Counted from the stretch's first letter, positions 144 through 62,065 are shown. The stretch is DNA of 64,000 nt from Alphaproteobacteria bacterium (GCA_016297965.1 JAEDDP010000001.1:139347-203346), one strand, 5' to 3'. Program-made: numbers and translations. Notes: generated from the sequence alone by a model not told the origin.

Positions 144-638
144 TTATTTTGCAATGATTGTTACATCACGACGATTCTTTGCGTATGCTTCTTCTGTATT
201 ACCAAGAACAGCAGGTTTATCCTTACCGTATGATACAGTTGTGATACGTTTTGCAGGAATACCCTGTGCAATCAAGTATCTTTTTGCAGCATTAGCACGT
301 TTTTCACCAAGAGCTTGGTTATATTTTCTTGTTCCACGTTCATCACAGTTTCCTTCAATAATGATGTTAACCTTTGGGAACATTTTCAACCATGCTGCTT
401 GTCTTTTCAAAGTTTTTGTTGCTTCGGCTGAAAGATTTGATTTGTCGTATGCAAAGTATACTGTGTTTCCAGCACGTGCGTTAAGATCTTCTTGTGAACC
501 AGCAACCAAACCCTTTACTTCTTCGGAGATGGAAGCTTCTGCACCATCATCAACGAATTCAGTTTCAGGAGCCTTTTCAGAACATGCAGCAAGTGCAAGA
601 ACACTAACTAATGCTAAACTTTTTAATGTTTTTTTCAT
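144..638 (-). CDS. pal: Peptidoglycan-associated lipoprotein Pal (OmpA-like C-terminal domain)
   Basis: Lipobox LALAAC after signal peptide; OmpA-like peptidoglycan-binding motif NQALGEKRANAAKRYL; size 164 aa typical of Pal. Confidence 0.85.
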   Translation of the reverse strand: MKKTLKSLALVSVLALAACSEKAPETEFVDDGAEASISEEVKGLVAGSQEDLNARAGNTVYFAYDKSNLSAEATKTLKRQAAWLKMFPKVNIIIEGNCDERGTRKYNQALGEKRANAAKRYLIAQGIPAKRITTVSYGKDKPAVLGNTEEAYAKNRRDVTIIAK

Positions 639-19990: not shown

Positions 19991-21763
19991 TTACTTTATT
20001 CCCAACATTTCATTTAATGATTTAAGCATATCTTCAATGGTATTTTTGTTTTTAAAGCCATCCAAGTTATACTCAGTCATCTTTCTTGCACTTGTTTCCA
20101 ATGCACCAATTACTCCTTCATAATCAAATTCGCCTTCTGCTTTAACATCAGGGGTTCCATTGTAGTTGAATGTGTAATTAACGTTTTCATTTTCAACTTT
20201 TACGAATTCGGAGCAACTGTATTCTAAACTTTCGTTGTTTAGTTGGGCGATTACATTTTTATATTTTTCAATATCTTCGCTTGCCATCAAATTCATATCC
20301 CCTATATTTGGAATGGAGATTTTGTTGTCTGGTTTGCGTTTGAATTTTGCAATTGTGTTAAGGAGTTTATCCAAGTTGTTGTGTGCGCGTGTTAAATCAT
20401 CCCCCTTTATCTTTTTAATTGATGGAAGTTTATCAAGCATAGATAGGGCATTTTGTAGGGCAGAATGTACATCCTTAGTTATTTGGGCATTATCCGCTTT
20501 ACATTCATTTGGCGCAAGGGATGCAAGCAAAGTTTTTATATCATTTTCCATTTGTGAAAGTTCGGAATTTACGTTTTTCTTTTTGTCGGATTTTTCCTTA
20601 ATTACACCATAAATACCCTTGTCTTTAAGTTCCTGAGCTGCATTTGTGCCAAGTGCAACACCAACGGTGTTATTTACGGTAAAGTCAAACAAACCCTTTA
20701 ATGCACCTTTCTTTGAAATTTCCTTTTCAAGGGCAGAGCGATTGTCCACAAGAGTGAATGTTGTGTCTTCCATATCAACCTTGAAATTACGGCCACAGGC
20801 AGTTTCACCTTCGGTTACAAAGGTGTTGGCGATAGTAACAAGTTCACGTGGATAGGTTTGTGATTTTGTGTTAAGGTTTAAATCGGCAAGCTTTCCAATT
20901 TGACCGGAATAATTCCATGAATTATCACCAATGTTTGCAAAAAGGCTTGCGATTGTGGAGGAAAGTTTCTTTTTTCCCTGATACATTGAACCGGTATCCA
21001 AAACGCCGTCGCTGTTGATTGTGGCACCGGAAAGAAAAGTTTTTTCGTCGCTGTCGGACCAATCATCAATGCTGATAGTTTTGTATTTTTCAATGATTGC
21101 ATCGCGACCGCATTTTTTATCAATTCCGCGGTCAAGTTCGGTTATCTTGGAGGCATCAAACATAGCCTTAAATGCGCCGTCGGCAGAGCTGTTTTTTTCG
21201 GCCTGAATATACATAAAGCAATCTTGGGCGGCGGAATATTTCGCCTTTGCCATATTACAATTTTTACGTTCCCTTATTTGTTGTTCGGAATATAAATCCC
21301 AAAGGTTTTCAACCAATTCCTCCTGAAATGGAGAACAAAAATTCATAAGATCCTTTCCATTGCAATTTTTGCCGGAAATTTCGGATGTGATGGACGAAAG
21401 GTTTGGAAGTTCAAAGTTGAATGAAAGTTGAACCTTTACCTTGCTTTTACATGGATAGGTTTCACAATATTTTTTTAATCCTTCGGATACGGCGATGGCG
21501 CATTTTCGTTTTGCAAGAAGGTTTGTGGATGATGGAACCGTGCCACAGATAAGGTTTGCATCATTGGAAATTGTCGTTCCGGTTGTTGTGGTTGTTTGTC
21601 CGGTATAGCGAGAATTTGATGAACTTAATGTTCCGCGTACGGATGTTTTTGACATAGTGGCGGAACGTTTTGAACGGTTTGACCTTCTTGGTGCAGACGA
21701 AACATTGGTATCAAAAAATATACCAACGATTAAAAACAAAGATGTGAACCAAGTTTTTTTCAT
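19991..21763 (-). CDS. Secreted Cys-rich protein, paralog family member (RS-rich post-signal motif)
   Basis: Signal peptide then APRRSNRSKRSA motif; shared blocks with 24961-26457 (NLW..Y...NCN.A.A...A...C, T(E/Y)(F/Y)PR(D/E)L, ...EK(E/K)I..KG.L.G). Confidence 0.7.
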   Translation of the reverse strand: MKKTWFTSLFLIVGIFFDTNVSSAPRRSNRSKRSATMSKTSVRGTLSSSNSRYTGQTTTTTGTTISNDANLICGTVPSSTNLLAKRKCAIAVSEGLKKYCETYPCKSKVKVQLSFNFELPNLSSITSEISGKNCNGKDLMNFCSPFQEELVENLWDLYSEQQIRERKNCNMAKAKYSAAQDCFMYIQAEKNSSADGAFKAMFDASKITELDRGIDKKCGRDAIIEKYKTISIDDWSDSDEKTFLSGATINSDGVLDTGSMYQGKKKLSSTIASLFANIGDNSWNYSGQIGKLADLNLNTKSQTYPRELVTIANTFVTEGETACGRNFKVDMEDTTFTLVDNRSALEKEISKKGALKGLFDFTVNNTVGVALGTNAAQELKDKGIYGVIKEKSDKKKNVNSELSQMENDIKTLLASLAPNECKADNAQITKDVHSALQNALSMLDKLPSIKKIKGDDLTRAHNNLDKLLNTIAKFKRKPDNKISIPNIGDMNLMASEDIEKYKNVIAQLNNESLEYSCSEFVKVENENVNYTFNYNGTPDVKAEGEFDYEGVIGALETSARKMTEYNLDGFKNKNTIEDMLKSLNEMLGIK

Positions 21764-21808
21764 ACCTTTAATTATACTATAATTTTTAAGTTAATAAAAG
21801 CCCTTTTT

Positions 21809-22411
21809 TTAGAAATTGTTTATTTCCTTTAACGCCATTTTTATAAGGTCGTTCATTCCAATCATTGGGTTTTTGTTTATAAGGTTCATTACAACCTCAA
21901 AACTTTGCGATCTGGTATAGCCAAGGTTGGAAAGGGCGGAAATTGCATCTTCGGCGATGGAATCGTTTTTCATTTCCCGTGAAATGCCGGCAAGTTCAAG
22001 GTTTATGTTTGTTTTTTGAACCTTGTCCTTTAATTCCTGAACTATACGTTCGGCGGTCTTTTTCCCAATGCCATTTGCCGTTGTGAATGAAACGGCATCA
22101 CCGGATAAAATAGCGGTGGAAATTTGTTGTGGGGTAAGGGCGGAAAGTATGGCAAGTCCGGCCTTTGGTCCGATACCCTGTACCAAAGTCAAAAGGTTAA
22201 AAAATTCGTGTTCGGTTTGGGTGGCAAAACCGTAAAGTGTGATACTGTCTTCACGTACTATTGTTTCAATCCAAAGTGTAAGAGGAGTGTTTAAGGTTAG
22301 TTTTGATATTGTCTTTTGTGGCACAAATACACCATAGCCAACACCGTTCACATCAAGTATTATTTGTGTTTCCGAAAGTGTGTCAACAATGCCCTTTAAT
22401 TTTGAAATCAT
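21809..22411 (-). CDS. ruvA: Holliday junction DNA helicase subunit RuvA (no adjacent ruvB)
   Basis: 200 aa; N-terminal OB domain ILDVNGVGYGVFVP, HhH motifs LVQGIGPKAG, C-terminal domain III. Confidence 0.9.
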   Translation of the reverse strand: MISKLKGIVDTLSETQIILDVNGVGYGVFVPQKTISKLTLNTPLTLWIETIVREDSITLYGFATQTEHEFFNLLTLVQGIGPKAGLAILSALTPQQISTAILSGDAVSFTTANGIGKKTAERIVQELKDKVQKTNINLELAGISREMKNDSIAEDAISALSNLGYTRSQSFEVVMNLINKNPMIGMNDLIKMALKEINNF

Positions 22412-24852
22412 TACCAGTTTATCGCCTTTATTTTTCTTACCATATCATTATAATTGAATGGTGAAATTTTGGAGTTATTGTGAATACATCTCTTTCCAAC
22501 TCCTTCAACTTGTTGCCAATCATCAAGGTTAAAATTGTTATATTGTTTTGAAATATAATCATATTCTTTTACAAGTTCTTTCATCGTTGATTTTTCGTTG
22601 GATGAAATCTTTTCATAATAAGTTTGTTCCTTAAACTTGCTATTTGGTGTAGGTGATATTGAACAACCATACCAACTTTTTGGATTTGTATCGTGAGCGC
22701 ATTTTAATTGAAGTTTTTTGAATATTTCGCAGGCTCTATCCGCTAATTTTTTTAATTCATCAAGATCAGATTTATAATTACACTCTTCTAATTGTTGTTT
22801 TGCATTTTCATACGTTATTGTTTTCCAAACAAAGCTAGTATTTGAACATTGTTTCTTTAATGCATCAAAACAAGCCTTTTGCGCTTCATCGGTATTTAAA
22901 AATACACCTTTTAGTGAAATGCCAAGTTGTGTTTGACACATATTGATTTCTTTTTGAGCATCAATTATCGCATTTAATTTTGTAATGTTTGACTTTATAT
23001 CATCAATAGTTTTTTTGAAATTATCCTTTGTCAAAGTAGGTTTGTCAGATGTATCATTACACAAAGAATTTCTTTTTTCCTTAACTTCATTACATGCATG
23101 TGTATTTAAATATTTTTTTACCTGTGAAATTGAAACTTTGTTTAAAAGTTCACTCTCTTTTTTCATTAAGTCGTTATATTCACTGTAATCAATCCAATTA
23201 TCAACTTTGTTTTTACATTCGTTTGAATAATCATAATTGTCATTACCAGCGGTTGTTGTAAGTTTTAAAGTTTCCTTTATTCCCTTAGTATCTGCATATT
23301 TTTTACATAATTCAGTTTCTATTTTGGTTTTGCAATTTTGTGGATTTTTTCCAATATCAATGGATAATTTGTTGTTGGAGTAAATCTTTTTGGCACCAAC
23401 CAAATAATTGTTGCATTCTGCCAAATCCTTTTCATTTTGTATTGTATTTAAACATTCCTTTACAACCTCATTATTTTCAAGAGTTGTTTTATTTATTGAA
23501 AAATCATTTTTTAATGTTTCTATGTCTGAATCACAGAATTTTTCGGTTCGGCTTTTTGTTGTTATGTAATAATCAAGACTTTTTGTTCCGCTTTTATTTG
23601 GAATAGGAGATACACCGCTACATTTCTCTTGTATTGCTTCCAAAAGGACCAAATTTTTTAAGCAAGTTTCAAGTTTTTCTGCGGCTTTGTCCTGTGATAA
23701 TATTTCATAGCTTTTGCAACTTTTATCTGGTTCAAACATTAACTGTATTTTTGATACGGATTTTGCCAATTTTGCAACTCCATTTTCAAAAATTACACCA
23801 TATCCAGGGTTGTTTGAACTTGCACAAAATGCCTTTGTTGTTTCGTATAAATATTTATAGCCATCAGGACTGTTGTCTTTGAACTCTTTATTTTTAAATA
23901 AGTTTCGTATGTCTGTTGTTAATTTAGAACACTGAGCAAGTTTTTCTATAATACATTCTTTTTGCGTTAATTCATCTTGTTTCTTTTTACACATTTCTAA
24001 TGAAGTAAGTTTTTTAACATCTTCATTTTTACTTATTTTTTGTATTTCAGCTTTACAATCTTCAAGAGCTTTATTTGCTTCCTGTTGTGCCTGTTTTAGT
24101 TTTTCAATATTTTCTTCGGCTGTTGTGGTTTCCGTTGCAATTTTTTTCTTAAGGGCTTCAAGTTGATCATTGGATAGGTTTTCTATGGTTGAAACATCCA
24201 ATTTTACATCCCTTTGATCTGTATTATGTTGTTTAAGGTTTGGAACCTTTTGTTTATTTAATTCTTTGTTCAAATCATCAAAATTTTTTTCGGTGATTTG
24301 TTTTGTCGTTTCTGTTGTTTTGAATAAGTCAGGAATGGAAAGAAGTCCTGCTTCCTCATTAAGTATTTTTGCCAGTGTTCCAAGTCCCGCTTTGATATCG
24401 GCCATTAGACCTGTTTTTGTTTGTGACTCTATTGTATTTATTTTTTCCCGTAATTTTTGGAATATACGAAGTTCTTCATAAAATTCCTTTATTGTCTTAA
24501 AGGTGTCATGTGATGCCGTTTCCGCAATACTTCCAGTAAGTTTTTTTGTGGCTGGTGCCGTTGGAAAACCATTAGGGCAGTCCTTGGTAATGCCTTCTTC
24601 CTTGCAAAATTTAGAGCAATCGCCAGTATATTTTGCATTTTTACAATAGTTATTTTGTAAATCTTCTACTTCTTTAAGAAATGCGTTTGCCACACTGTTA
24701 AGGTTTGTTGCTGTATCAGATGGTATTTTAATTTCAAGGTTTCGTTCAATCCTTGTGTCAGAATCAGACTTTGCACCAGAATCAGAAACCATCCCTGCGT
24801 AAAGAGTAGGGGAAAAGAAAAGACAAAGTAGTGTAGCTATCACTTTTTTCAT
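22411..24852 (-). CDS. Large secreted Cys-rich, Lys-rich coiled-coil protein (hypothetical)
   Basis: Probable start MKKVIATLLCLFF signal peptide; ~40 Cys distributed in CxxC/CK pairs; stop overlaps the ruvA start codon. Confidence 0.6.
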   Translation of the reverse strand: MKKVIATLLCLFFSPTLYAGMVSDSGAKSDSDTRIERNLEIKIPSDTATNLNSVANAFLKEVEDLQNNYCKNAKYTGDCSKFCKEEGITKDCPNGFPTAPATKKLTGSIAETASHDTFKTIKEFYEELRIFQKLREKINTIESQTKTGLMADIKAGLGTLAKILNEEAGLLSIPDLFKTTETTKQITEKNFDDLNKELNKQKVPNLKQHNTDQRDVKLDVSTIENLSNDQLEALKKKIATETTTAEENIEKLKQAQQEANKALEDCKAEIQKISKNEDVKKLTSLEMCKKKQDELTQKECIIEKLAQCSKLTTDIRNLFKNKEFKDNSPDGYKYLYETTKAFCASSNNPGYGVIFENGVAKLAKSVSKIQLMFEPDKSCKSYEILSQDKAAEKLETCLKNLVLLEAIQEKCSGVSPIPNKSGTKSLDYYITTKSRTEKFCDSDIETLKNDFSINKTTLENNEVVKECLNTIQNEKDLAECNNYLVGAKKIYSNNKLSIDIGKNPQNCKTKIETELCKKYADTKGIKETLKLTTTAGNDNYDYSNECKNKVDNWIDYSEYNDLMKKESELLNKVSISQVKKYLNTHACNEVKEKRNSLCNDTSDKPTLTKDNFKKTIDDIKSNITKLNAIIDAQKEINMCQTQLGISLKGVFLNTDEAQKACFDALKKQCSNTSFVWKTITYENAKQQLEECNYKSDLDELKKLADRACEIFKKLQLKCAHDTNPKSWYGCSISPTPNSKFKEQTYYEKISSNEKSTMKELVKEYDYISKQYNNFNLDDWQQVEGVGKRCIHNNSKISPFNYNDMVRKIKAINW

Positions 24853-24960
24853 AATGTTTATTGTATCATTTTTTTTCGTGAAGGGCAAGACCTATTTATC
24901 GTTAGTATTAAAAAAAAGCCCCCAATGAATGAGGGCAATGTTTTAAAAAGTGAAAGTTTG

Positions 24961-26457
24961 TTATTCTTCGGAAGGTTCAGTTGGGGTTGCCGGTGTATCA
25001 CCAGAACCATCAAAGCTTGTATCTCCGGTGCCGTCGCCTTCTTCACTAGAATATGAAGAGGTAGAAGGATTTTCAGGTTCTTTTTCTTCGCCACCTGTTT
25101 CACCGGAAGATTTCTTTTCTTCCCTTAATTTTTTGGCTTCTTCACGTTTATTTTTTCTTTCTGTTGCCTTTTTCTCCTTTTCTTCGGCTTTTTTTGCCTT
25201 ATCTAATTCTTTTTTAACAGATTTTACTTCTTTGTTTAAAGCTTTATAATTTTCATTTAACTGATTAACCTTTTCAACAAAGTCAGGTTCGGTGCTTTCA
25301 GGAATGGCTTCCTTTTGAGCCTTTAATTCTTCTATCTTTTTGGTTAAATCACTTTTCTTTGTTTCATCGGTAATTTCGTTAATTGAGGTTGTTAATGTTT
25401 CTATATTACCGTCAAATTTGTTAAGCATATCTTTTGCAGATTTTATATCCTTTATTTGTTTATCTGCTTCACGTTCTTCTTTGGTCTTTCCGGCCATTGT
25501 GTCATTTGCCCAATTTGTACCCTTGAATGCGCCAATTTGGTCAACAATATATTCCTTTCCACCGGCAAGAAGTCCCTTTTCGTTAATCTTTCTTTCAATT
25601 GAGCTTGTCTTGTCAACAAGGGCGATGTTTGCATCGTAAAGTTCAGTGTAGTTTTTCTCGCCACACATCATATTACCCTCTGATTTAAGGGAGTTTACAA
25701 GTTGGATTAAATCACGTGGAAATTCGGTTGTTTTAAAATCAATTTTAAGGTCAAGAAGTCGTCCATAGGCCGCAAGGTTTGACCAACCGATATTTCCAAC
25801 CTTTGAAAAGTATGAAGTTAGACTGTCCCCAGTTTCGGAGTCGGAAATTTCTTCACCATTTGAAATTCTTTTATATTGTAATTGTATTGCGGATTTTCCA
25901 CATCTGCTGTTTAAATCACCACTTGAAATGACAACTTTTTCATTTTGGCTTGTCAAAACATAACGATAGCATTCTTCAGCAGCAAGTGAGCGGGCAAGGG
26001 CGATATTACAATTTTTTGTATCATTTGCGGCATAGCTGTCGTATGAATTCCAAAGGTTGTTTACCGCTTCTTCAATGAAATTTGCACAATAAATTTCATT
26101 TACCTCAGTTGTATCGGTTGGAAGAATTATCCCCGCATAGGCTTCGGTTGCATTTTTACATTTGTTGTTTCCACAATAGTTTTTAAGAGATTTAACAACC
26201 ATTGCAGTACAGTTTCGTTTTGCACTGGCATCGGTGATTGGGGCAACCTGTGTATAATCGGTTGTTCGTACGGTTGTGTCGGCAACGGTAGCATTTACGG
26301 ATGTTGTTGTACCGCTTACCTTTACATTACCACTAAGACTGCGACGAGATGAGGCAGAACGTGCGGAAGAACTGTTCCTTCTGGAATTTCTTGCGGCGTC
26401 TGCATTTTGATTGAAAAGTACAGCCAATCCCAATAATGCAATAAGTTTTTTAGTCAT
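24961..26457 (-). CDS. Secreted Cys-rich protein, paralog family member
   Basis: Signal peptide ADA-A then ARNSRRNSSSARSASSRRS; paralogous blocks with 19991-21763 and 26472-27977; acidic/K-rich low-complexity C-terminus. Confidence 0.7.
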   Translation of the reverse strand: MTKKLIALLGLAVLFNQNADAARNSRRNSSSARSASSRRSLSGNVKVSGTTTSVNATVADTTVRTTDYTQVAPITDASAKRNCTAMVVKSLKNYCGNNKCKNATEAYAGIILPTDTTEVNEIYCANFIEEAVNNLWNSYDSYAANDTKNCNIALARSLAAEECYRYVLTSQNEKVVISSGDLNSRCGKSAIQLQYKRISNGEEISDSETGDSLTSYFSKVGNIGWSNLAAYGRLLDLKIDFKTTEFPRDLIQLVNSLKSEGNMMCGEKNYTELYDANIALVDKTSSIERKINEKGLLAGGKEYIVDQIGAFKGTNWANDTMAGKTKEEREADKQIKDIKSAKDMLNKFDGNIETLTTSINEITDETKKSDLTKKIEELKAQKEAIPESTEPDFVEKVNQLNENYKALNKEVKSVKKELDKAKKAEEKEKKATERKNKREEAKKLREEKKSSGETGGEEKEPENPSTSSYSSEEGDGTGDTSFDGSGDTPATPTEPSEE

Positions 26458-26471
26458 AATTTTTTCTCCTT

Positions 26472-27977
26472 TTAATCATCCAAAGTTGTAAATTCTGTTT
26501 GGTTTAGTTCCTTATTTTCTTCCCTTCCAAGCATCTTTTTAAGGGCAGTTTTTGAAAGGTTTACGTTTTCATTTTCCATATCGTAATCAATTGTTTTATA
26601 TTCAATGGTTGCATTTTCACCAACACCGGTTTTGCGAACCTCAATTATACGATATTGTTTTTTCTCGCTTTCCTCAGGTGTGAGAAGAAGGTATTTCCCG
26701 GTTTTAAGTTCAGATTTCTTTTCCTTTAATGTACTATCGGAAATATCACCGCTTAGTGTAAGTACGGCAATGCTTGTATCCGTATTAACATCTTCATCTT
26801 TTACACCACCAATGATACCTTCACGGGAAAGCTTATTCATACGGTTTTCACCAACGATAACAGATGCCTGGTTAAAGGTCCAGGTTTGTGCGCCCTTTAA
26901 TCCACCCTGTTCATCAATTGCCCGAGCAAGAGATGACTTTTCACGGGAAACCTGAATATCGGTTTGATGCATTGTTGCGGTATATTCGGAACCGCAGGCA
27001 GGTCCAACTTCGTTTAGGTGAGTGTTTAGAATTTGGGTTATTTTTACCTCCCAATCGTTGGATTTGTCAGTAATTTTTCCATCCAAATAATTACTTACAA
27101 CTTCAATTCCATCGGCAGGGCTTAATTTTCCGGCATTTATATATAGTCGTGGAATGTCGGTTGGGAAAATTATACCCTTTTGTTCCTCATCCCCAAAGAG
27201 TTTGGTCCATTTTGCTTGGAGACCAGCAATTCCGCAAAGGCTGTTTAACTTGCTTTCAATAGAATCAACCGCACCGGTTGCACGTCCGGCGGAAAGTACG
27301 GCCTGAAAACATTCGTTTGATGCCTCCGCCACAACACGTTTAAGTTTGCAATTTGGTGAATTTGCACCGGTTATTTGGTAATCATCGGCAATGCTTTTTG
27401 TTAAATCCTCAGTAAACATATAGCAAGCCTTATCATACTCATACGCCTGACCTTCAATATATACGGTAATGCCAGAAGTATCAAAGTTTATGAAAAGGTC
27501 GTTTGCATCATAACATTTAAGTTTACCATCTTCGCCAATGCCGTTGTTGAAATAAGATTCATCACAGGCATTTTGAATTGCATTTATAAGGGCATTTCCA
27601 CAAGCCTTTCTTTGTGAAACGGCAAAAGAATCACTCTTTTTAATACATTCATTCGTGTTTGATGCATTTATTATATAATTTGTTTCATCAACACATTCGC
27701 ATGCGGTTCCGGCGGAATTTTTTCTGGCATTTGCACCACATTTAAGGAAAGCAGTTGTTTTTTTACCGATACATGCCGGATCGCCAGGTTTTGCACACTT
27801 TATTGTCTTTATTCCGGATGTTGTATTTTTAAGTCCGGTGGAAGTTTGTGCGTTCGTTGCGGAATAAATTGAACGGGCGGATCTTCGGTTTGTACGTGCA
27901 GAATAAACATCACTACCAATTAGAAGTAATGGTAGAGCCATAATTTTTATATAAAAGTTTTTGTTCATTTTTTTCAT
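26472..27977 (-). CDS. Secreted Cys-rich protein, paralog family member
   Basis: Signal peptide then SARTNRRSARS motif; shares the ACG...SLARAIDEQGGLKG block with the other family members. Confidence 0.65.
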   Translation of the reverse strand: MKKMNKNFYIKIMALPLLLIGSDVYSARTNRRSARSIYSATNAQTSTGLKNTTSGIKTIKCAKPGDPACIGKKTTAFLKCGANARKNSAGTACECVDETNYIINASNTNECIKKSDSFAVSQRKACGNALINAIQNACDESYFNNGIGEDGKLKCYDANDLFINFDTSGITVYIEGQAYEYDKACYMFTEDLTKSIADDYQITGANSPNCKLKRVVAEASNECFQAVLSAGRATGAVDSIESKLNSLCGIAGLQAKWTKLFGDEEQKGIIFPTDIPRLYINAGKLSPADGIEVVSNYLDGKITDKSNDWEVKITQILNTHLNEVGPACGSEYTATMHQTDIQVSREKSSLARAIDEQGGLKGAQTWTFNQASVIVGENRMNKLSREGIIGGVKDEDVNTDTSIAVLTLSGDISDSTLKEKKSELKTGKYLLLTPEESEKKQYRIIEVRKTGVGENATIEYKTIDYDMENENVNLSKTALKKMLGREENKELNQTEFTTLDD

Positions 27978-28145: not shown

Positions 28146-28757
28146 ATGGTTGGAAAAATTTTAATGCCAAAGGCAACAGCAGTGTGGTTGATTGATAATA
28201 CCGCTTTGACTTTTGAACAAATTGCAGATTTTTGTGGTATGCATGTTCTTGAAGTGCAGGCTTTGGCTGATAGGGAACAAACTGATTATGTTGTTGGTTC
28301 AAGTCCGATTTTGAATGGAATGCTTTCAAAGGAAGATATTGAAAAGTGTGAAGCAGATCCAAATGCAAAACTTACCCTTAGCAAGAATTCAGAGGAGTTT
28401 TTGAAGAAAAGCCGTGAGGTTAAATCAAGATATACTCCTATGGCACACAGACAAAATCGTCCGGATGCAATTGCATGGATTTTGAAAAATCATCCAAATA
28501 TTTCTGATGCACAAATTTGTAAGTTGGTAAGAACAACTAAGGCAACAATTGAAGCTATTCGCGACAGAACACATAAGGCGATTGCGGATATTCAACCAAG
28601 AAATCCAGTATTACTTGGTATTTGTTCTGAATTTGATTTAACAAAAGCTATTGTTGATGCCAATAAAAAGGCTGAGGTTGCACAAAAAAGAGCCGAAGCT
28701 GTGGCAAAGAAAGTTGCCGAAAAGACGGCAGACGAAGAATTTGTTGAAGAAAAATAG
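28146..28757 (+). CDS. Conserved hypothetical protein (DUF1013-like, alphaproteobacterial; recalled as often near rpoD)
   Basis: 203 aa, helical, with a basic N-terminus and an Ala/Lys/Glu-rich C-terminus; family assignment is from memory only. Confidence 0.4.
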   Translation: MVGKILMPKATAVWLIDNTALTFEQIADFCGMHVLEVQALADREQTDYVVGSSPILNGMLSKEDIEKCEADPNAKLTLSKNSEEFLKKSREVKSRYTPMAHRQNRPDAIAWILKNHPNISDAQICKLVRTTKATIEAIRDRTHKAIADIQPRNPVLLGICSEFDLTKAIVDANKKAEVAQKRAEAVAKKVAEKTADEEFVEEK

Positions 28758-34157: not shown

Positions 34158-36893
34158 ATGTTTAAAAAGTTTTTAAGTCTTGGTACCGTTTTATTGCTTG
34201 GTGGATGTTTGACAACATCGGATACCGGTTCGCGTGTTTCGGGGTCTTCATCATCGGGTGGTTCACATTCATCCGGTGGAAGTTCGGACAGAAATCATAA
34301 TAACAGTTCAACAAAGCTTAATCGTATTTCAAAGATTGCCGATTTATCAAAGGATATTGCCGAAGAAAATAAATCCCGTGTAACAAGTGCGTTTAAAAAG
34401 TATAATGAAAATAATTCAACCGGAAAAATTTCCTTTACCACAGAAAATTTTGAATATGCGGATGACATTTTGAAAAATCAAAGTACGGTGAATAATTTGG
34501 CGGGATTGTCATCATCGTATGATACGGTACTTTCCAATTTATCAAACTGGAATTCAACGCTTTCAGGTGTATCACAAAGTTTAGCGGATGCAACACAAAA
34601 TCTTAATTCTAAAAAATCGTCGTTATCACAAAGTCAAACTGCACTTGACCAAACAAAGACAGACCTTATTGCAGAGGAGCAAAAGTTGGATGGGTATTAT
34701 GCAGAGTTGGCAAATTTGTGGAAATTAAAATCTGAATATGGTTCGAATGATTACAGTGGTCCACAGATGTCCACTTTGTTGGGAATGATAAGTCAGAAAC
34801 AACAACAAATAAATAGTTCAGAATCCACTTGTTCTTCGTATCGTAATTCAATATCTTCGTACGAGTCCACAATATCATCCCTTAACAGTGAGATAAGCTC
34901 CGTTCAACAAGATGTGAATAATTATACTTCACAAAAGGATGAAGCGACCGCAAAGGTTAATCAGTATACAAATGAAAAGGCAAGTTTGGAGGATACGATA
35001 ACCACGGAAATACAAAAATTTGATGCGAATTTTAGTGCATCAAAATACGGGGATGCCCTTTCAACCGAAATTAAAAATCGGGTGAATATATATTCCGGAT
35101 ACTATATTATGTCAACAAGACTTGCCAATGTGAAGGTGTTGCTTGATGCCTATGATGAAGGAAAATATACATCCGGTGGAACATCATATACCCGTGGAAG
35201 TTATTATGAAAACAAGGCATTGTTGAATGATTACAACAAGTATTTGCTTGGCAAAAAACGGTCGGATTTTTCAAGTGATAAGGATTATGCGGATTGGCTT
35301 TCGGCCAATGCAACATCATTTTCTGGAAACAGGGCAAGTTATACAAGTGATGCTGCATATATTACCGCGGTGCAGACGGCATATTTTAATTGGGTAAAGG
35401 TTTTGTCCGGTTTGGAAAATTATGCAAAATCTTCATATTCAGCGGATGATTATAATGCGATAATGAATGCACTTAGTTCAAAGCGGTCAAGTTTGGCGAA
35501 TGTGGTTAAAACACTTGAAGATGTGATGGTTGGCGCCCTTAAAAAACTTGATAGCACATATACAAGTGATGAACTTCCGTTGACACTTTCGCAATACATT
35601 GCATTTTTCAGAAACCAGAAAAAGATTTTATCGGCCATAAGTGGTGTTGATTATATTTATGATGTGACGGTTCATCCGGAAGGTGCAGTTTCGGCAACAT
35701 CAACCGGTGATGAAAGTTCAAAATCGGTTTTGACCTATGACTATAATTCCGCCATTTCAGATTACATTTTGAATTTTAGGGAAACTTCAAAAAGTGGTAC
35801 AAACAAAAATGACACGGTTGTAAGTTTTAAGGCGAGTGATTTTAGTGCAAGTGGTAAGGCGTACGTTGCCACATCAACAAGGACCGTTTCAAAGACAGAA
35901 GATTACTATACATTCCTTTCTGGTGTAGAGTCGTATGTGTACGGGGGTGGGGTATTGGATGCAGAAGTTGAATCACGTAGAAAGTACGCACTTTCTGTAT
36001 TTACTCGTGTTCAAAATGGCACTGCAACAGATGCGGAAAAGGCTGTTTTAAAACAATGGCTTGGTTCCAATTTTTCATCGGATATTACAAGTGTTGCCTT
36101 TTCATCCCTTACCGACAATGAAAAGTTGAAATTCAATTTGGCAATGTATATGCTTGGCAAGGAAAAGCCAGATTTCACCGTTGACAAGGCACGAATTATT
36201 ACCGATACGGTAAAGCTTGGCGGAACGGTTGCGGGACTTACATTTTCCGATTTCGGTATTTGGAGTATAAAGGGTATGAATAAGTATACCGGAGATGAGC
36301 AACTTTTGGCAAAGAATTTGGATGGAAAGTTTTCATCCGATACCTATCACGTGCAATATCCGTTTATAAGTGGTATGTCGCAATTTAAGCAGGGGTATGC
36401 TTCCGATTCAACACTTGCGGCTGGAAAATCCGTTGTATTTAAAGGAAATGCACTTGGTGTTGCGACACTTTCCGGAAATAATCAGAGTGATACCTTGGTG
36501 AAGGATTTGTCGGGTTCGGCTACACTTACCGTTGCGAATGATTTGCAAACAAAAAATGGTGTTTCATCCATTTATGGAAATTTAAGTGTGAACTTTGATA
36601 ATTACTATTCATTCAAATTTGCCGATATTGATGTGGCAAGCAAGAATGGATTTAAGTCATCCAATGTTTCAATTGAAAGTTCAAGCAAGGTTGCGAATAC
36701 CGATAAGTTCCAATTTGGAAGCTCGCCAACGCTTAGTGGTTCGGTTACCGGACAAATGTATGGTTTGGAAACGAATCGTCCAACAGAAGCGGTTGGTATG
36801 TTTGATGTGTCATCAAAAACAATTCACAATGACCCAACAAATTCAACCTATTCAAAACTTACCGTTGAAGGTGCGTTTGGTGTAAAGAAGTAA
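34158..36893 (+). CDS. Giant surface lipoprotein (candidate Slam-dependent SLP) with TbpB/fHbp-type C-terminal 8-strand barrel signature
   Basis: Lipoprotein signal MFKKFLSLGTVLLLGGC; Ser/Gly-rich linker; ~800 aa novel region with coiled-coil stretches; C-terminus GQMYGLETNRPTEAVGMF...EGAFGVKK matches the GxFYGxxAEExGGxF...xFGAK(K/R) signature of TbpB_B_D/Lipoprotein_5 domains; translationally coupled to the next gene. Confidence 0.6.
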   Translation: MFKKFLSLGTVLLLGGCLTTSDTGSRVSGSSSSGGSHSSGGSSDRNHNNSSTKLNRISKIADLSKDIAEENKSRVTSAFKKYNENNSTGKISFTTENFEYADDILKNQSTVNNLAGLSSSYDTVLSNLSNWNSTLSGVSQSLADATQNLNSKKSSLSQSQTALDQTKTDLIAEEQKLDGYYAELANLWKLKSEYGSNDYSGPQMSTLLGMISQKQQQINSSESTCSSYRNSISSYESTISSLNSEISSVQQDVNNYTSQKDEATAKVNQYTNEKASLEDTITTEIQKFDANFSASKYGDALSTEIKNRVNIYSGYYIMSTRLANVKVLLDAYDEGKYTSGGTSYTRGSYYENKALLNDYNKYLLGKKRSDFSSDKDYADWLSANATSFSGNRASYTSDAAYITAVQTAYFNWVKVLSGLENYAKSSYSADDYNAIMNALSSKRSSLANVVKTLEDVMVGALKKLDSTYTSDELPLTLSQYIAFFRNQKKILSAISGVDYIYDVTVHPEGAVSATSTGDESSKSVLTYDYNSAISDYILNFRETSKSGTNKNDTVVSFKASDFSASGKAYVATSTRTVSKTEDYYTFLSGVESYVYGGGVLDAEVESRRKYALSVFTRVQNGTATDAEKAVLKQWLGSNFSSDITSVAFSSLTDNEKLKFNLAMYMLGKEKPDFTVDKARIITDTVKLGGTVAGLTFSDFGIWSIKGMNKYTGDEQLLAKNLDGKFSSDTYHVQYPFISGMSQFKQGYASDSTLAAGKSVVFKGNALGVATLSGNNQSDTLVKDLSGSATLTVANDLQTKNGVSSIYGNLSVNFDNYYSFKFADIDVASKNGFKSSNVSIESSSKVANTDKFQFGSSPTLSGSVTGQMYGLETNRPTEAVGMFDVSSKTIHNDPTNSTYSKLTVEGAFGVKK

Positions 36894-36896
36894 GTA

Positions 36897-38381
36897 ATGT
36901 TTTTTGTTGGGGAACTTTTTCGCGTATTGTTTTATGTCCTTTTTATAGGATGTTTTTCCTTTTTGTTTGATGTGGGCGCCCGTGCATCGGTTGGTGATGT
37001 GGAGGGGGAGGAGCTTGTTTTTGACTCGTCAAAGGTTGGTGTGCCTTTGCCTGCGGAAGTGTCTGTTAAAAAAGAAGTGGTTCCGGCAAATGTAGAAAAA
37101 GCCACGGTGGATGATAATTTTTCCGTATCAAAGGAGAATGCCCTTCTTATTGCAAAGAATATGGTTGCAAGGGGGATGTTTGATGATGCCCTTGTCATCC
37201 TTAACAAAATACAATTTGATATAGAAACAGAGCGTGATTTGGAATTAGAGCGGTGGTTCCTTTTGGGGCAAATTGCAATGGCAAAATCCGATTATGACGG
37301 GGCGATTGCTTTGTTTCGGAAGATATTGGATGTTAATCCGGACCTTTCACGGGTGCGGTTGGATTTGTCCCTTGCCTATATGCAAACGGGTTCGTATATA
37401 AGGGCAAATTATAATTTTCGGCTTGCCATGGCGGGGAATTTGCCGGATACCGTGTCCGAAAATGTTTCAAAATTTCTTTATATTCTTCGCGCAAATAAAA
37501 ACTATGGCTTTTGGTTTAATTTTGGAATTGCACCGGATTCAAATATAAATAATACCAGATCCGGAACACAATGTGTAAATACAATTTTTGGTGTGCTTTG
37601 TAATGATTTACCCGGTGCGGAGGACAAGGTTGGATACAACTTTGCCTTTGGTGGTGATTATGAATTTCGGTTGTCCGAAAGGTGGCGGATAAAGTCAGAT
37701 TTGGGGATGAACATTTCAAAATATGATGAACGGGATTATGATGATTATTCGGTTTCTGCGTCGGTTGGTCCACGATATATTTTTGATGGTGGTGAACTTT
37801 ATTTGGGGCTTTCGGGGCAACGACGATATTTGGCACATACTCCGTATAGCTATTTTATTGGTGCGAAGATGTCCGGAAACTATGATATTACGCAACGGCT
37901 TTCGTTTGGGGCATCGCTTTATATTTCACCAATGAGATATGATAATGTTAAGGCGTTGGATGGGAACAACTGGGGTATTGCTTCACAATTTGCATATTCT
38001 CTTACTCCATCAAAGTATATGATTTTCAAATCTGGGTATGACAGGGAAGAAACCGATGCGCCAGCGTACAGGAATGGCAAGGTTAATTTTGGTATTGGTT
38101 TTGGGGCGGAACTTTATGGTGGTTATTCAATCTATTTGGAACCATCGGTTGTGTTTACAAATTATGATAATCCACGCCCTTATATAAAGGATAATTTTTA
38201 TCAACCGATTAAGCGAAATGATACAACGTGGAAGTATCAAATAACACTTGCAAACAAGAAAATAAATCTTTATGGATTTACTCCAACCTTTGGTTATACC
38301 TATACTTCACGGAACAGTAATGTATGGCAGGAGGAGTATTCAAAGCATTCATTTAATTTTGGTTTTTCACAACGTTTTTAA
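36897..38381 (+). CDS. Slam-like (DUF560) outer-membrane protein: N-terminal TPR domain + C-terminal beta-barrel
   Basis: 494 aa (Neisseria Slam1 is ~490 aa); signal peptide; TPR-like helical repeats (residues ~80-200); C-terminal half is alternating-strand barrel ending in aromatic F (FGFSQRF); start 3 nt after the lipoprotein stop. Confidence 0.6.
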   Translation: MFFVGELFRVLFYVLFIGCFSFLFDVGARASVGDVEGEELVFDSSKVGVPLPAEVSVKKEVVPANVEKATVDDNFSVSKENALLIAKNMVARGMFDDALVILNKIQFDIETERDLELERWFLLGQIAMAKSDYDGAIALFRKILDVNPDLSRVRLDLSLAYMQTGSYIRANYNFRLAMAGNLPDTVSENVSKFLYILRANKNYGFWFNFGIAPDSNINNTRSGTQCVNTIFGVLCNDLPGAEDKVGYNFAFGGDYEFRLSERWRIKSDLGMNISKYDERDYDDYSVSASVGPRYIFDGGELYLGLSGQRRYLAHTPYSYFIGAKMSGNYDITQRLSFGASLYISPMRYDNVKALDGNNWGIASQFAYSLTPSKYMIFKSGYDREETDAPAYRNGKVNFGIGFGAELYGGYSIYLEPSVVFTNYDNPRPYIKDNFYQPIKRNDTTWKYQITLANKKINLYGFTPTFGYTYTSRNSNVWQEEYSKHSFNFGFSQRF

Positions 38382-50245: not shown

Positions 50246-50872
50246 TTAGAATAAACCAGCAAGTGAGTTTGCAATTCTTTGTTTTATTTGTGTGCTTGCT
50301 TCCTCAGGCGTTAGATTTACCCTTTTTGCATTTACGGTAAGCATTGTTGTTTGGGCGTTGTTTTTACCTTCGGTAATCCTTATATCTGTTTGAACATTGT
50401 ATGTGATGTCCTTTGTATTTGCATCAAAATACATTGTTGCAAGTCCCGCAGCAAGTCCGGCACCAATACCTGCCAATCCGTCATTTTTGTTTGCAACGGC
50501 AAGTCCAACTCCGGTTCCGGCAATAACGGCATCATTTTGTGCGTCCATTGCACTTGATCTGTTTATTGAAATTGCCCTTACAACATTTGCTTGGAGGATA
50601 AAGTTTGCATTTGCAGGGTTGGTTGTTATCTGGTATCCCTTGTATTCAAGGGCGCGTGTGATATATCCGTTTAGGTCGTTAAAGTTTTGGTTGTCGGATG
50701 TATTTCTTACCTGTACAAAGATTTTTGTGTTTTCCGGTACGGTTGGGTTTAACCATATTGTTTTATTCATATTGGTTGTGATTTCAAGATCGCTGTTCGC
50801 CATACGGGTATAGGTTCCGGAACATCCAGAAAGTAGGGCGATTGTTGATAAAATAGTTATAAATTTTTTCAT
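50246..50872 (-). CDS. traT: TraT-like surface-exclusion / complement-resistance outer-membrane lipoprotein
   Basis: Lipobox LLSGC; block TIWLNPT...IFVQVRNTSDNQ...KGYQITTNPANANFILQANVVRA closely parallels F-plasmid TraT (TIWLEPA...FLQIKNTSDKD...[23 protein letters not shown]); glycine-zipper segment AGTGVGLAVA...GIGAGLAAGLA. Confidence 0.8.
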   Translation of the reverse strand: MKKFITILSTIALLSGCSGTYTRMANSDLEITTNMNKTIWLNPTVPENTKIFVQVRNTSDNQNFNDLNGYITRALEYKGYQITTNPANANFILQANVVRAISINRSSAMDAQNDAVIAGTGVGLAVANKNDGLAGIGAGLAAGLATMYFDANTKDITYNVQTDIRITEGKNNAQTTMLTVNAKRVNLTPEEASTQIKQRIANSLAGLF

Positions 50873-52732: not shown

Positions 52733-53326
52733 ATGGATAATCAAAAAGTAAAGGTAAATCTTTTGGGTGAAGAAAATGGTAATGGTACAGATGTTCTTGA
52801 TTTGGCACTTAAAACTAATGGTGCGGAAAAGGAATATAATATCATTCTTCATAACAGATTTTTGACTATTGATAAAGAGGTAAATAAAAGGTTAAGGTCT
52901 GCGGGATTTACCAATGAACAGGCACAACTTGTTTACGATTTGGCAGGTGAAATTATGATACCAAAGATTCAAGAAGTGGTTGAAGAATTTCGTGCATATC
53001 GCGAGCTTGCAAAATTGGAAAATTATTTTGGTGGTGAAGAACGTTTTGATGAAATATCAAGACAGATTTCTATGTGGGCGGAAAAAAATGTTCCACCGGA
53101 AATTTATCAATCTTTGAACTCTTCTTTTTATGGTGTGATTGCATTGTATAATATGATGACTTCCAATGAACCAAAAGTTATGGCAAAGTCTGGGGAAACA
53201 CAGGAAGTTATCACCGAGAAAAAATTGAAAGAGATGATGCAAGATCCAAAATATTGGAGAGATGGTGATAAGGATTTTATTAAAAAAGTTGATGACGGTT
53301 TTAAATTTTTATATGGTGATGAATAA
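52733..53326 (+). CDS. T7 gp9-like capsid scaffolding protein
   Basis: Acidic helical 197-aa protein; C-terminus MMQDPKYWRDGDKDFIKKVDDGF parallels the T7 gp9 C-terminus AMSDPRYRTDANYRRQVEQKVIDSNF; located upstream of the capsid gene. Confidence 0.6.
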   Translation: MDNQKVKVNLLGEENGNGTDVLDLALKTNGAEKEYNIILHNRFLTIDKEVNKRLRSAGFTNEQAQLVYDLAGEIMIPKIQEVVEEFRAYRELAKLENYFGGEERFDEISRQISMWAEKNVPPEIYQSLNSSFYGVIALYNMMTSNEPKVMAKSGETQEVITEKKLKEMMQDPKYWRDGDKDFIKKVDDGFKFLYGDE

Positions 53327-53437
53327 AATTTTTATTAAAAAAAATTGAAAAAATTTTATTTTTTTATATTTTGCTGTTGCAGTATTGCTTTTTGTGTGGT
53401 ATATTGTATCTGTCTTTTGTTTAATAAGGAGAGAGAT

Positions 53438-53902
53438 ATGTTTAAAAGTATAATTAAAAGAGCTTCTAAACCAACCGCAAAAAAGGTTGCCGTAAAATCA
53501 GAAGAAAAAAAAGTTGTTGCTAAAAAAACAACAGTTGCAAAAAAGCCAGTAGCTAAAAAAGTTGCAGTTAAAAAAACAGCAGTTGCAAAGAAACCAGTTG
53601 CTAAAAAAGTAACAGTTAAAAAAGCGACAGTTGCAAAGAAACCAGTTGCTAAAAAAGTTGCAGTTAAAAAAACAACAGTTGCAAAGAAACCAGTTGCTAA
53701 AAAAGTGACAGTTAAAAAGGCAACAGTTGCAAAGAAACCAGTTGCTAAAAAAGTAACAGTTAAGAAAGCAACAGTTGCAAAGAAACCAGTTGCTAAAAAA
53801 GTAACAGTTAAAAAAATCGTTGTAAAGAAAGCTTCTGTTAAGGTTGCATCAGTTAAAAAAGCTGTGAAACCTGTTGCAAAAAAAAAAGTAGCAAAGAAGT
53901 AG
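53438..53902 (+). CDS. Histone H1 / Hc1-like lysine-rich repeat protein
   Basis: SD aaggagag before ATG; about six tandem 16-aa repeats KKPVAKKV(T/A)VKK(A/T)TVA encoded by 48-bp DNA repeats. Confidence 0.65.
   Translation: MFKSIIKRASKPTAKKVAVKSEEKKVVAKKTTVAKKPVAKKVAVKKTAVAKKPVAKKVTVKKATVAKKPVAKKVAVKKTTVAKKPVAKKVTVKKATVAKKPVAKKVTVKKATVAKKPVAKKVTVKKIVVKKASVKVASVKKAVKPVAKKKVAKK
53515..53830 (+). repeat. 48-bp tandem coding repeats (about 6 copies) inside the H1-like gene
   Basis: gttgcaaagaaaccagttgctaaaaaagt(a/g)acagttaaaaaagc(g/a)aca recurring with a 48-bp period. Confidence 0.8.
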
Positions 53903-53910
53903 AAGTTTCT

Positions 53911-54471
53911 TTGGTAGTTTCTAATCCTAACAAGGATAAGAAAGAGGTTGGTGAAAATAAGAAAACATCCTTTTTCGGTTCTTTGTTAGGATTTTTTTAT
54001 AATCATACAAAGGGAATTATAAAAACAATTTTAATACTTTCAGTATTGGTTGCATTTACAACTTCGTTTATGAAAGAATTAGAAGTGTATGCGGATATGC
54101 GTTTTGCAATGAATCCTATTGAAATTATTTTTATTGGTTTTGTTGATGCTGTTTTTAATCTTGTAAAATACTTTATACCTTTCCTTTTTGTATGCTTGAT
54201 TATTAAATTTATTATGATTAAATCTAGGAAGTTAAAGGTTGAATACATATTTAACAGACAATTTAAAATGCAAATCTTGATTGCCTTTTTGCTTTCGTTT
54301 GCATTTGCAGTTTTGTTTTATACTGATGTGTTGGCGATTGCCACATATTCACCACAACTTGTGAAATCATCGGTTGATATTTTTATGTTGTCATTCTTTT
54401 CAATACTTTTGACATTTACATCTTTGTTTGGTTTGTTGGATGGTGTTGATACCGTGATTTCAAAGAAATAG
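53911..54471 (+). CDS. Hypothetical polytopic membrane protein (moron between scaffold and capsid genes)
   Basis: 186 aa, 4 predicted TM helices. Confidence 0.45.
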   Translation: MVVSNPNKDKKEVGENKKTSFFGSLLGFFYNHTKGIIKTILILSVLVAFTTSFMKELEVYADMRFAMNPIEIIFIGFVDAVFNLVKYFIPFLFVCLIIKFIMIKSRKLKVEYIFNRQFKMQILIAFLLSFAFAVLFYTDVLAIATYSPQLVKSSVDIFMLSFFSILLTFTSLFGLLDGVDTVISKK

Positions 54472-54583
54472 TTAAGTTCTGGATTAAATTATACTTTTGT
54501 CCGTCCCTTTTTGGGGCGGATTTTTTTTATGGGCGAAGTTAAATTTGCCCTTTTCGTTTAATTAAAATATAGGAGATTTATAT

Positions 54584-55414: not shown

Positions 55415-55449
55415 AATAAAACAAAAATAAAAAAAGGAGAAAAAATATT

Positions 55450-55710: not shown

Positions 55711-55753
55711 ATAAAATAAATATCTTTTAATTTCAAGGTTCCATTTTTTTTGG

Positions 55754-56338: not shown

Positions 56339-56348
56339 GTAGGTAATT

Positions 56349-58250: not shown

Positions 58251-58263
58251 AAGGATTAAAAAA

Positions 58264-58683: not shown

Positions 58684-58686
58684 AAA

Positions 58687-62064: not shown

Positions 62065-62065
62065 A

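Follow-up and report, generated by a model that had tools for sequence, protein, structure and literature searches.

An arginine-rich, acid-free tract directly behind the signal peptide of unrelated orphan families in gut Alphaproteobacteria: a putative electrostatic anchor or sorting tag

In a lineage of gut Alphaproteobacteria, at least three mutually unrelated protein families begin, directly behind a predicted signal peptide, with a basic, arginine/serine-rich tract whose putative role is most likely that of an electrostatic anchor or sorting tag. The window, that is, the whole stretch of 64,000 nucleotides that we analyzed, contains four such proteins, P1 to P4. The reading frames proposed earlier for these four, for a Cys-rich neighbor and for ruvA all hold, and the basic tract is real in P1-P4, following the predicted signal peptide rather than lying inside it by rule-based inspection:

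19991-21763, minus strand: P1, predicted exported Cys-rich paralog, 590 aa
21659-21694, minus strand: P1 basic tract, residues 24-35, APRRSNRSKRSA, after a predicted site between VSS and A
21809-22411, minus strand: ruvA, inside the cluster
22411-24852, minus strand: Cys-rich protein, 813 aa, its signal peptide ordinary and not followed by a basic tract
24961-26457, minus strand: P2, predicted exported Cys-rich paralog, 498 aa
26338-26394, minus strand: P2 basic tract, residues 22-40, ARNSRRNSSSARSASSRRS, after a predicted site between ADA and A
26472-27977, minus strand: P3, predicted exported Cys-rich paralog, 501 aa, heading the cluster
27870-27899, minus strand: P3 basic tract, residues 27-36, ARTNRRSARS, after a predicted site between VYS and A
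60208-62064, plus strand: P4, 618 aa, member of a different superfamily
60274-60339, plus strand: P4 basic tract, residues 23-44, ARKRKSSKNARTASIRERSVKR
62051-62749, plus strand: P4 partner, 232 aa, its start overlapping P4, no basic tract

Signal peptides and cleavage sites were assigned by rule-based inspection. By these rules the four window proteins and their orthologs carry Sec-type (signal peptidase I) signal peptides, with MKK, MTKK or MRK n-regions, hydrophobic cores of 11-14 residues, a polar c-region, and predicted cleavage sites with A, S or G at -1 and A, V, S or C at -3; the tract begins +1 to +3 from the best Ala-X-Ala-type site. The P3 gene starts at the ATG at 27977, with AGGA 8-11 nt 5' of it; some gene callers start it at Met13 instead, which removes the basic n-region. 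A Tat signal peptide can be rejected: the Tat motif, S/T-R-R-x-F-L-K, is located in the n-region, ahead of the hydrophobic core (PMC3383694); here the n-regions have Lys or a single Arg, and the arginines follow the core and the Ala-X-Ala-type site. Signal peptidase II processing is likewise rejected: P1-P3 have no Cys at the cleavage site, and NMDCYGA in P4 departs from L-(A/S)-(G/A)-C, the lipobox motif that true lipoproteins of the window (144-638, 34158-36893, 50246-50872) show.

Every ortholog examined has retained the tract's position and charge but not its sequence. We found it in 27 P2, 11 P1, 10 P3 and 4 P4 orthologs or relatives. Arg accounts for 16-26% of tract residues versus 2-3% in the rest of the protein, acidic residues for 1.7% versus 15%, and the R/(R+K) ratio is 0.75 versus 0.20, in a Lys-rich genome of 35% GC. 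AlphaFold2 predicts the N-terminal 62 residues of P2 to be disordered (pLDDT 35-45 in the tract, above 90 in the core), and in P2 orthologs the conserved motif NVxVxGTTTxINAxVxDTT follows the tract. Because Arg and Ser codons in the tract are mixed, selection acts on the amino acids, and an explanation at the nucleotide level, for example by a purine-rich element in the mRNA, was rejected.

P1, P2 and P3 are true paralogs, as the original prediction had it (BLASTP E-values of 5e-34, with 27% identity over 381 aa, 6e-15 and 9e-11), with 23-27% identity among them. The shared sequence blocks that it listed are present as well; P3, the most divergent member, retains the NC, CG and G.LKG block and lacks NLW and FPRDL. 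Common to all three, and to two further subfamilies, is a helical domain of about 230 residues with eight conserved cysteines, located in P2 as follows:

25558-26235, minus strand: P2 core domain, residues ~75-300, helical

The P2 cysteines concerned are C83, 95, 100, 124, 150, 163, 186 and 265. Each paralog has all eight, and so do 27 of the 29 sequences compared, the two exceptions having lost C95 and C100 together, and cysteine counts are even; these patterns argue for disulfides formed outside the cytoplasm. Along with the short cores and the conserved small residues at -1 and -3, the cysteines make an extracytoplasmic location likely for P1-P3. The two further subfamilies, found elsewhere in these genomes, were matched by hhalign (96.6%, E 6e-10; 99.9%, E 4.5e-34), so that superfamily A comprises P1, P2, P3 and at least these two.

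We tentatively place P1-P3 in an orphan superfamily whose members would be exported by Sec and bonded by disulfides, and which is restricted to one lineage, a small clade of uncultured animal-gut Alphaproteobacteria. Only 31 matches were obtained among 1.84 billion representatives; Pfam and NCBIfam searches with the six proteins of interest, and Pfam searches with seven homologs, gave nothing above noise, and a PDB sequence-profile search gave no match at E<=1. Fold searches returned generic helical-bundle matches only, and the domain is thus uninformative on the binding partner. Tripartite alpha-pore-forming toxins (ClyA/Hbl/Nhe/Ahl) were considered and rejected, since their combination of three helical paralogs per operon with a ClyA-like fold was not found, as were the Sel1-like cysteine-rich proteins of Helicobacter, there being no Sel1 or TPR match in Pfam at E<=0.1. 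One source names a homolog, P0071, after a SPOR domain; Pfam finds no such domain in it at E<=0.01, and the label probably reflects its Pro/Ala-rich tail.

The view of P1-P3 as a recently expanded family, and as an expansion for surface variation, has to be abandoned. The three genes are ancient, with orthologs in 12 of 12 species-level genomes sampled, and behave as conserved core genes of fixed synteny among rpoD, trcR, ruvA and clpX. Of 12 species-level gut MAG loci, nine are long enough to show the order P3-P2-variable protein-ruvA-P1-clpX, and all nine have it, with ruvA embedded in the cluster. The stop codon of the 813-aa protein gene overlaps the start of ruvA. One further element bears on transcription:

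24918-24936, minus strand: terminator-like hairpin and T-run just 3' of the P2 stop codon, a consensus match only

This hairpin suggests that P3 and P2 may form a single transcription unit, apart from the 813-aa protein gene, ruvA and P1.

P4, initially taken for a fourth related gene, is not detectably homologous to P1-P3 (BLASTP E-values of 0.95, 0.085 and 5.8; hhalign probability 24% over 16 columns); on BLASTP and profile-profile comparison remote homology was rejected, and only the layout of signal peptide and basic tract is shared. Its superfamily is characterized by conserved Cys224 and Cys594 and by a pair of hydrophobic segments rich in Gly, Ser and Ala, at about residues 238-262 and 556-585. 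The 232-aa partner contains the same two Gly-rich hydrophobic segments, and the pair is conserved in other species; a metagenome scan for P4 relatives yielded one locus only. A phage origin was rejected: viral contigs hold no relatives of either family (P1-P3 type or P4 type), and a tRNA-Phe gene lies between P4 and the neighboring podovirus remnant.

The tract heads superfamily A, superfamily B (P4, L015:7049-9943 and L002:5031-6293) and a family C, represented by L022:17400 in a related genome, which has no HMM match to the others. Among real genes in about 0.45 Mb of lineage DNA, a scan flagged a strongly basic, acid-free early mature region only in the tract families; its other flags were one prophage ORF and several short antisense ORFs. 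The tract is absent from TolB, Pal, BamE, porins, small OMP barrels, TraT, Bor and lipoproteins, as well as from the 813-aa neighbor and the 232-aa P4 partner. It is this reuse on unrelated families, and the absence from housekeeping periplasmic and outer-membrane proteins, that makes the tract resemble a sorting or anchoring tag; the resemblance noted in the original prediction stands insofar as the tract is conserved, position-specific and present on at least three unrelated families. That prediction did not recognize the tract, and we likewise found no described equivalent.

Could the tract be devoid of specific function, a low-complexity disordered linker kept by descent, its recurrence due to chance or compositional drift? 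The tract is disordered and variable in sequence, as such a linker would be, and within superfamily A (P1, P2, P3 and the two extra subfamilies) it counts as a single ancestral character, since the members are homologous. However, charge and Arg preference have been maintained across paralogs of 23-27% identity and across 12 species, against a genome-wide Lys bias; acidic residues are almost completely excluded; and the tract appears independently on two unrelated families. We consider this explanation, already disfavored, very unlikely.

In tract-bearing proteins the first 20 mature residues have a net charge of +4 to +10 and 0-1 acidic residues, and the first ~18 lack the neutral or negative character expected for Sec export; other exported proteins of the same genomes have a neutral or acidic early mature region. 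The tract occupies the very position addressed by the early-mature-region charge rule (Kajava et al. 2000; positive-inside rule), the first ~18 residues past the signal peptide, where the rule, as cited in PMC3701571, expects neutral or negative charge in Gram-negatives. TolB, Pal and porins encoded in the same genome obey the rule, unlike the tract proteins. Strong positive charge early in the mature protein should hamper Gram-negative Sec export (Kajava et al. 2000, as cited in PMC3701571), and the tract may therefore exert its effect during export and not afterward. The prion protein likewise has a positive cluster right behind a cleavable signal peptide, affecting translocon gating: a polybasic motif adjoining the signal peptide impairs gating of Sec61 (PMC6451349). 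This case differs in being eukaryotic, in involving Sec61 with BiP and Sec63, and in concerning one motif in one protein rather than a tag of several families.

Following this line, the tract might slow or pause Sec export, leaving the signal peptide as a temporary tether, or might flip the N-terminal hydrophobic segment, turning it into an N-out/C-in anchor that leaves the protein cytoplasmic. The prion protein case and the early-mature-region charge rule (PMC3701571) point this way, as does the positive-inside rule, by which charges after a hydrophobic segment favor cytoplasmic retention of the flank (PMC9360617). We nevertheless hold an effect on translocation or topology to be improbable: a core of 11-14 residues falls short of what a stable transmembrane helix needs, conservation of Ala-X-Ala-type c-regions would have no purpose unless the site gets to the periplasmic signal peptidase, and the eight cysteines, with their paired loss and even counts, argue for non-cytoplasmic disulfides.

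P2 orthologs are 45-70% identical across species, and P1 and P3 orthologs 31-58%. Variation is confined to P4, to the 813-aa protein in the middle of the cluster and to one part of P2:

24964-25464, minus strand: P2 C-terminal tail, residues 332-498, predicted to form a long helix that gives way to an acidic, disordered end

From about residue 332, other strains of the same species have an unalignable sequence instead. The 813-aa protein evolves fast: within the species it is 89-93% identical versus 99-100% for housekeeping neighbors, its orthologs range from 484 to 1279 aa, and between species identity is 22-34% where BLAST found a match (4/9). A head-to-tail pairing of basic N-termini with acidic C-termini was also considered and discarded, acidic C-termini being common in P2 and P4 orthologs but inconsistent across families.

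As a tentative explanation, we propose that the tract acts as an N-terminal, polycationic tether that binds an anionic polymer of the envelope or of the host and leaves the variable C-terminal parts exposed. The proteins share one plan. A signal peptide, predicted to be cleaved, comes first, then a disordered tail of 10-25 residues (more in some relatives) that is rich in arginine and free of acidic residues. A Ser/Thr/Asn-rich spacer usually follows, ahead of the helical domain of about 230 residues, which four disulfides would stabilize. The C-terminal extension varies from paralog to paralog, between species and even among strains. Our data show this plan and its conservation, the arginine bias, the reuse on unrelated families and where variability lies; cleavage, the disulfides, the final location and the binding partner are inferred. 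Tail and spacer also stand at the head of two unrelated families (the P4 type and the third type, from a related genome). After export, removal of the signal peptide would free a polycationic N-terminus able to bind a polyanion. The likeliest target would be the envelope of the cell itself, through phosphates and carboxylates of LPS or through some other anionic polymer, with host sulfated glycans or extracellular DNA as alternatives. Binding would keep the conserved domain at the surface and put the variable C-terminal parts on display. Electrostatic binding fits the data because the constraint bears on composition, not on sequence, and an anchored N-terminus with an exposed C-terminus fits because variability is concentrated away from the N-terminus. 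Against the tether, we identified no route across the outer membrane, and the cluster encodes no transporter. The conserved N-terminal domains and fixed core-genome position would also fit a periplasmic structural role.

There are precedents for such a tether. The Arg-rich segment of NHBA and the alpha-peptide of neisserial IgA protease, which are short, disordered, Arg-rich, Ser-containing segments of exported Gram-negative surface proteins like those described here, bind heparin, heparan sulfate and extracellular DNA electrostatically (PMC5472700, PMC7184908). However, NHBA is a lipoprotein with a mid-protein Arg-rich segment and a C-terminal 8-stranded beta-barrel, whereas our tract is N-terminal and non-lipidated, and the alpha-peptide is part of an autotransporter passenger. 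Membership in the NHBA family was rejected, with no Pfam, NCBIfam or PDB-sequence match and an all-helical predicted fold here; the likeness to polyanion-binding cationic anchors lies in composition alone (Arg-rich, acid-free, disordered).

NHBA is also cut beside its Arg-rich segment, by NalP, lactoferrin and kallikrein (PMC5472700, PMC7184908), and our tract might similarly be a pro-region or processing site for a bacterial or host basic/dibasic protease (for example, furin/kexin-like, R-x-K/R-R), which would excise the tract or cleave inside it, so that the tract would serve maturation and have no place in the functional protein. Strings of the form R-x-(K/R)-R or R-x-x-R do occur in several tracts (RSKR in P1, RKRK in P4, RNSRR in P2). 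Yet dibasic pairs are missing from many orthologs (NRGRNTIRG and QRAGRTARAGR are examples), the tract loci show no linked protease, and a cut would remove only 10-20 residues beside an already processed N-terminus, to no obvious benefit. Of the explanations considered, we give this one the least credence.

The main rival to the tether is a dedicated sorting signal, whereby a lineage-specific machine would read the new N-terminus after Sec export and move the protein across or into the outer membrane. Short segments that start a mature protein and decide its fate after Sec export have precedents in the N-terminal 22 residues of mature CsgA (N22), which serve the curli channel, and in the charge-defined signal that follows the lipobox in surface lipoproteins of Bacteroidetes and directs their export. 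These are Gly/Asn-rich or negative, and depend on known machinery or on lipidation; we see neither here. A sorting signal would account for the strict location of the tract at the first mature residues in three unrelated families, for its absence from housekeeping envelope proteins and for the short conserved motif NVxVxGTTTxINA after it in P2 orthologs. The genome also has surface-display machinery of another kind, a Slam-type protein encoded at 36897-38381. However, no candidate transporter is linked to any tract locus; a length of about 10 to 45 residues with no sequence motif is unusual for a recognized signal; and Slam-type systems are annotated for lipoproteins and recognize their cargo through C-terminal domains. 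A sorting signal is possible but doubtful.

Rather speculatively, the tract could even be a new kind of N-terminal post-Sec tag, marking a lineage-specific surface proteome of unrelated orphan families that would be exported efficiently despite the charge rule and read by a dedicated machine or by an anionic outer surface, an 'electrostatic lipobox' for non-lipidated surface proteins; we think this unlikely. Should the tail be a tether or a sorting tag, it would represent a simple, charge-defined display of non-lipidated proteins by a diderm bacterium, and a natural counter-example to the rule that positive charges after the signal peptide block Sec export. Were it a mere linker, what remains would be an ordinary lineage-specific orphan family. 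The proteins define conserved yet partly hypervariable envelope components of a little-known human- and animal-gut alphaproteobacterial clade, and could be markers, antigens or handles on how uncultured organisms meet host, phage and neighbors.

Every ORF named in the original prediction is present at its proposed position. Three of them encode exported Cys-rich proteins on the minus strand (P1, P2 and P3), and P4 lies apart on the plus strand:

26472-27977, minus strand: P3, 501 aa
24961-26457, minus strand: P2, 498 aa
22411-24852, minus strand: Cys-rich 813-aa protein
21809-22411, minus strand: ruvA, its start overlapping the stop codon of the preceding gene
19991-21763, minus strand: P1, 590 aa
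60208-62064, plus strand: P4, 618 aa

A terminator-like hairpin is located 3' of P2. Public gene calls start P3 at Met13 (489-490 aa), so that the basic n-region of its signal peptide is lost; the ATG at 27977, which has AGGA upstream and results in a canonical signal peptide, is the better start.

The four proteins had been proposed as a single set of paralogs. P1, P2 and P3 are real paralogs by BLASTP (P1-P2, E 5e-34, 27% over 381 residues; P2-P3, E 6e-15; P1-P3, E 9e-11), and their alignment shows the sequence blocks first used to group them, P3 being the most divergent. P4 has to be removed from this set: pairwise BLASTP against P1-P3 detected no paralogy (E 0.95, 0.085 and 5.8), and profile-profile comparison of the two families reached only 24% probability over 16 columns.

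The P1-P3 family has no match in Pfam, NCBIfam or PDB sequences, and a profile run against 1.84 billion representative proteins gave 31 matches only. One source labels P0071, a P2 homolog, as 'SPOR domain-containing protein'; a Pfam search detects no such domain there, and the name probably derives from its Pro/Ala-rich tail. The family is present at 12 loci in the GTDB species set. The order rpoD, trcR/P3, P2 is kept in all 12 (trcR lies at 28146-28757 in the window), and the variable Cys-rich protein, ruvA, P1 and clpX come next in 9/9 loci that reach further, with cmk added in eight. Given this constant gene order, the three genes are old, syntenic parts of the clade's core genome rather than the recently expanded surface-variation family once envisaged. 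The source organism is an uncultured alphaproteobacterium with a GC content of about 35%. Close relatives of the window proteins were recovered from gut metagenomes of animals and humans and bear no label beyond 'Alphaproteobacteria bacterium' or, in one MAG from termite gut, 'Rickettsiales bacterium'. The source organism is an ordinary diderm; envelope genes in the window comprise PBP1a, two small OMP barrels, TolB, Pal, TraT and a Slam-type protein.

A weak profile match, P0166, pointed to two additional subfamilies encoded elsewhere within the same genomes, where their genes occur singly, surrounded by housekeeping genes. Members of the first have about 450-500 aa and 10 cysteines, those of the second about 640-790 aa and 26-42 cysteines. 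Profile comparison shows homology of both subfamilies with the P1-P3 core (hhalign, core to first subfamily: 96.6%, E 6e-10, 221 columns; first to second: 99.9%, E 4.5e-34). Related genomes hold further Cys-rich orphans, free of the basic tract described below (L022:15406-17136 and L020:20274-21776; 36 Cys in 576 aa, CPAG/CPSG-type repeats), and exported orphans with many disulfides seem abundant in the clade.

Eight core cysteines (C83, 95, 100, 124, 150, 163, 186 and 265 in P2) are conserved across P1, P2 and P3 and kept in 27/29 aligned sequences. The two exceptions have lost C95 and C100 jointly, the signature of a disulfide pair. For P2, AlphaFold2 predicts disorder at residues 1-62 (pLDDT 35-45) and a confident helical domain spanning residues about 65-220 and 245-270, where many blocks exceed pLDDT 90; long helices at residues 326-450 lead to an acidic, disordered C-terminal end. 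Within the species, housekeeping neighbours share 99-100% identity, P3 about 98-100% (start-codon difference disregarded), P1 97% and the P2 domain 96-98%; the 813-aa protein falls to 89-93%, and the P2 tail is swapped outright from about residue 332 on.

All orthologs of P1, P2 and P3 carry, directly after the predicted Ala-X-Ala-type site, a tract rich in Arg alongside Ser, Asn, Thr, Gly and Ala, from which acidic or hydrophobic residues are nearly missing. Measured on 18 residues from the first basic residue, a choice that somewhat inflates the contrast, Arg makes up 16-26% of the tract against 2.0-2.6% of the rest of each protein, R/(R+K) is 0.75 against 0.20, and acidic residues amount to 1.7% against 15%. 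The signal-peptide hydrophobic cores span just 11-14 residues and small -1/-3 residues are conserved, so the N-terminus looks like a cleavable signal peptide, not a membrane anchor, and the tract is predicted to lie in the mature protein, as first suggested, rather than within the cleaved peptide. A Ser/Thr-rich stretch that looks like a spacer usually comes after it. Tract length and sequence vary freely among orthologs and its Arg and Ser codons are mixed; the conserved properties are charge and the arginine side chain. That the tract is a processing site is very improbable, and we think it quite unlikely that it has no specific function.

The tract is also kept by P4 orthologs down to 26% identity and by a 964-aa P4-type paralog of another species (KSKKKKKNRNRNRNR...). 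At L022:17400-18662, a signal peptide precedes about 45 residues of K/R/S in a protein with no HMM similarity to the other tract-bearing families. No housekeeping exported protein (TolB, Pal, BamE, OMP barrels, lipoproteins, TraT, Bor) bears a tract in about 0.45 Mb of clade DNA, nor do the 813-aa neighbour and the small P4 partner. Reuse of the tract by unrelated families lends support to the sorting or anchoring tag originally suggested. A dedicated sorting signal as such seems doubtful.

Negative net charge across the first 18 mature residues is reported to be important for Gram-negative export (Kajava et al. 2000, as cited in PMC3701571). Retention in the cytoplasm is favoured when positive charges follow a hydrophobic segment (PMC9360617), and in eukaryotes gating of Sec61 is impaired by a polybasic motif adjoining the signal peptide of PrP (PMC6451349). 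Tract-bearing proteins show the opposite of the reported Gram-negative preference, with +4 to +10 at the early mature region. An action of the tract on translocation or topology is unlikely. By analogy, the tract would be akin to two known kinds of element, arginine-rich polyanion-binding segments and post-Sec N-terminal signals; the protein body bearing it is an orphan superfamily. Our preferred, though tentative, reading is that the tract may be a polycationic tether at the N-terminus, binding the protein to an anionic polymer. A functional precedent comes from Arg-rich segments of NHBA and of the IgA-protease alpha-peptide, with heparin, heparan sulfate and eDNA as their ligands (PMC5472700, PMC7184908). 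The target of the tract might be LPS or envelope of the cell itself, or else host glycans or DNA. On this reading, the spacer would be the Ser/Thr stretch, the conserved body the predicted disulfide-bonded domain, and the exposed variable end the C-terminal parts.

The P4 locus adjoins a T7-like podovirus remnant (52733-59286), which also includes a capsid assembly protein:

50246-50872, minus strand: TraT-like lipoprotein (PF05818, E 2e-39), adjoining the remnant
53345-53902: 185-aa Lys/Ala/Val-rich remnant ORF
54584-55414: major head protein
55754-56338 and 56349-58250: tail tubular proteins
58687-59286: terminase large subunit, truncated to 199 aa
60001-60076, minus strand: tRNA-Phe (GAA), the sole RNA gene found
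62051-62749: 232-aa P4 partner, overlapping the P4 end
62924-64000: ftsZ, starting at about 62924 and leaving the window

The tRNA, between remnant and P4, is probably an old integration site. The portal gene of a related strain (Head-tail_con, L020:14448-15962) is found beyond ftsZ, so that cellular genes interrupt the set of phage genes. The 185-aa ORF contains 6.5 copies of a 48-bp repeat (53507-53816); its match to histone H1-like HC2 (PF07382, 41.1 bits) barely exceeds the 40-bit cutoff and is probably due to composition.

P4 contains a perfect 147-bp tandem duplication (61404-61697, 2.0 copies, 100% identity), which is very recent, since its 49 extra residues are absent in other strains, whose proteins mostly have 565-594 aa. 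Between strains P4 shows 69-87% identity, more variable than its neighbours, and 18-bp repeats in its partner (62397-62484) encode NEGE-type repeats. The order P4, partner, ftsZ is found again in L016 and L020, and in L015 and L020 the P4 ortholog has a mipZ-like gene nearby. Elsewhere, at 34158-38381, the window encodes an orphan lipoprotein of 911 aa that has no match in Pfam. Directly after it comes a surface lipoprotein assembly modifier of the Slam type (36897-38381; PF04575, E 1e-30), and the two look like a substrate-translocator pair for surface display.
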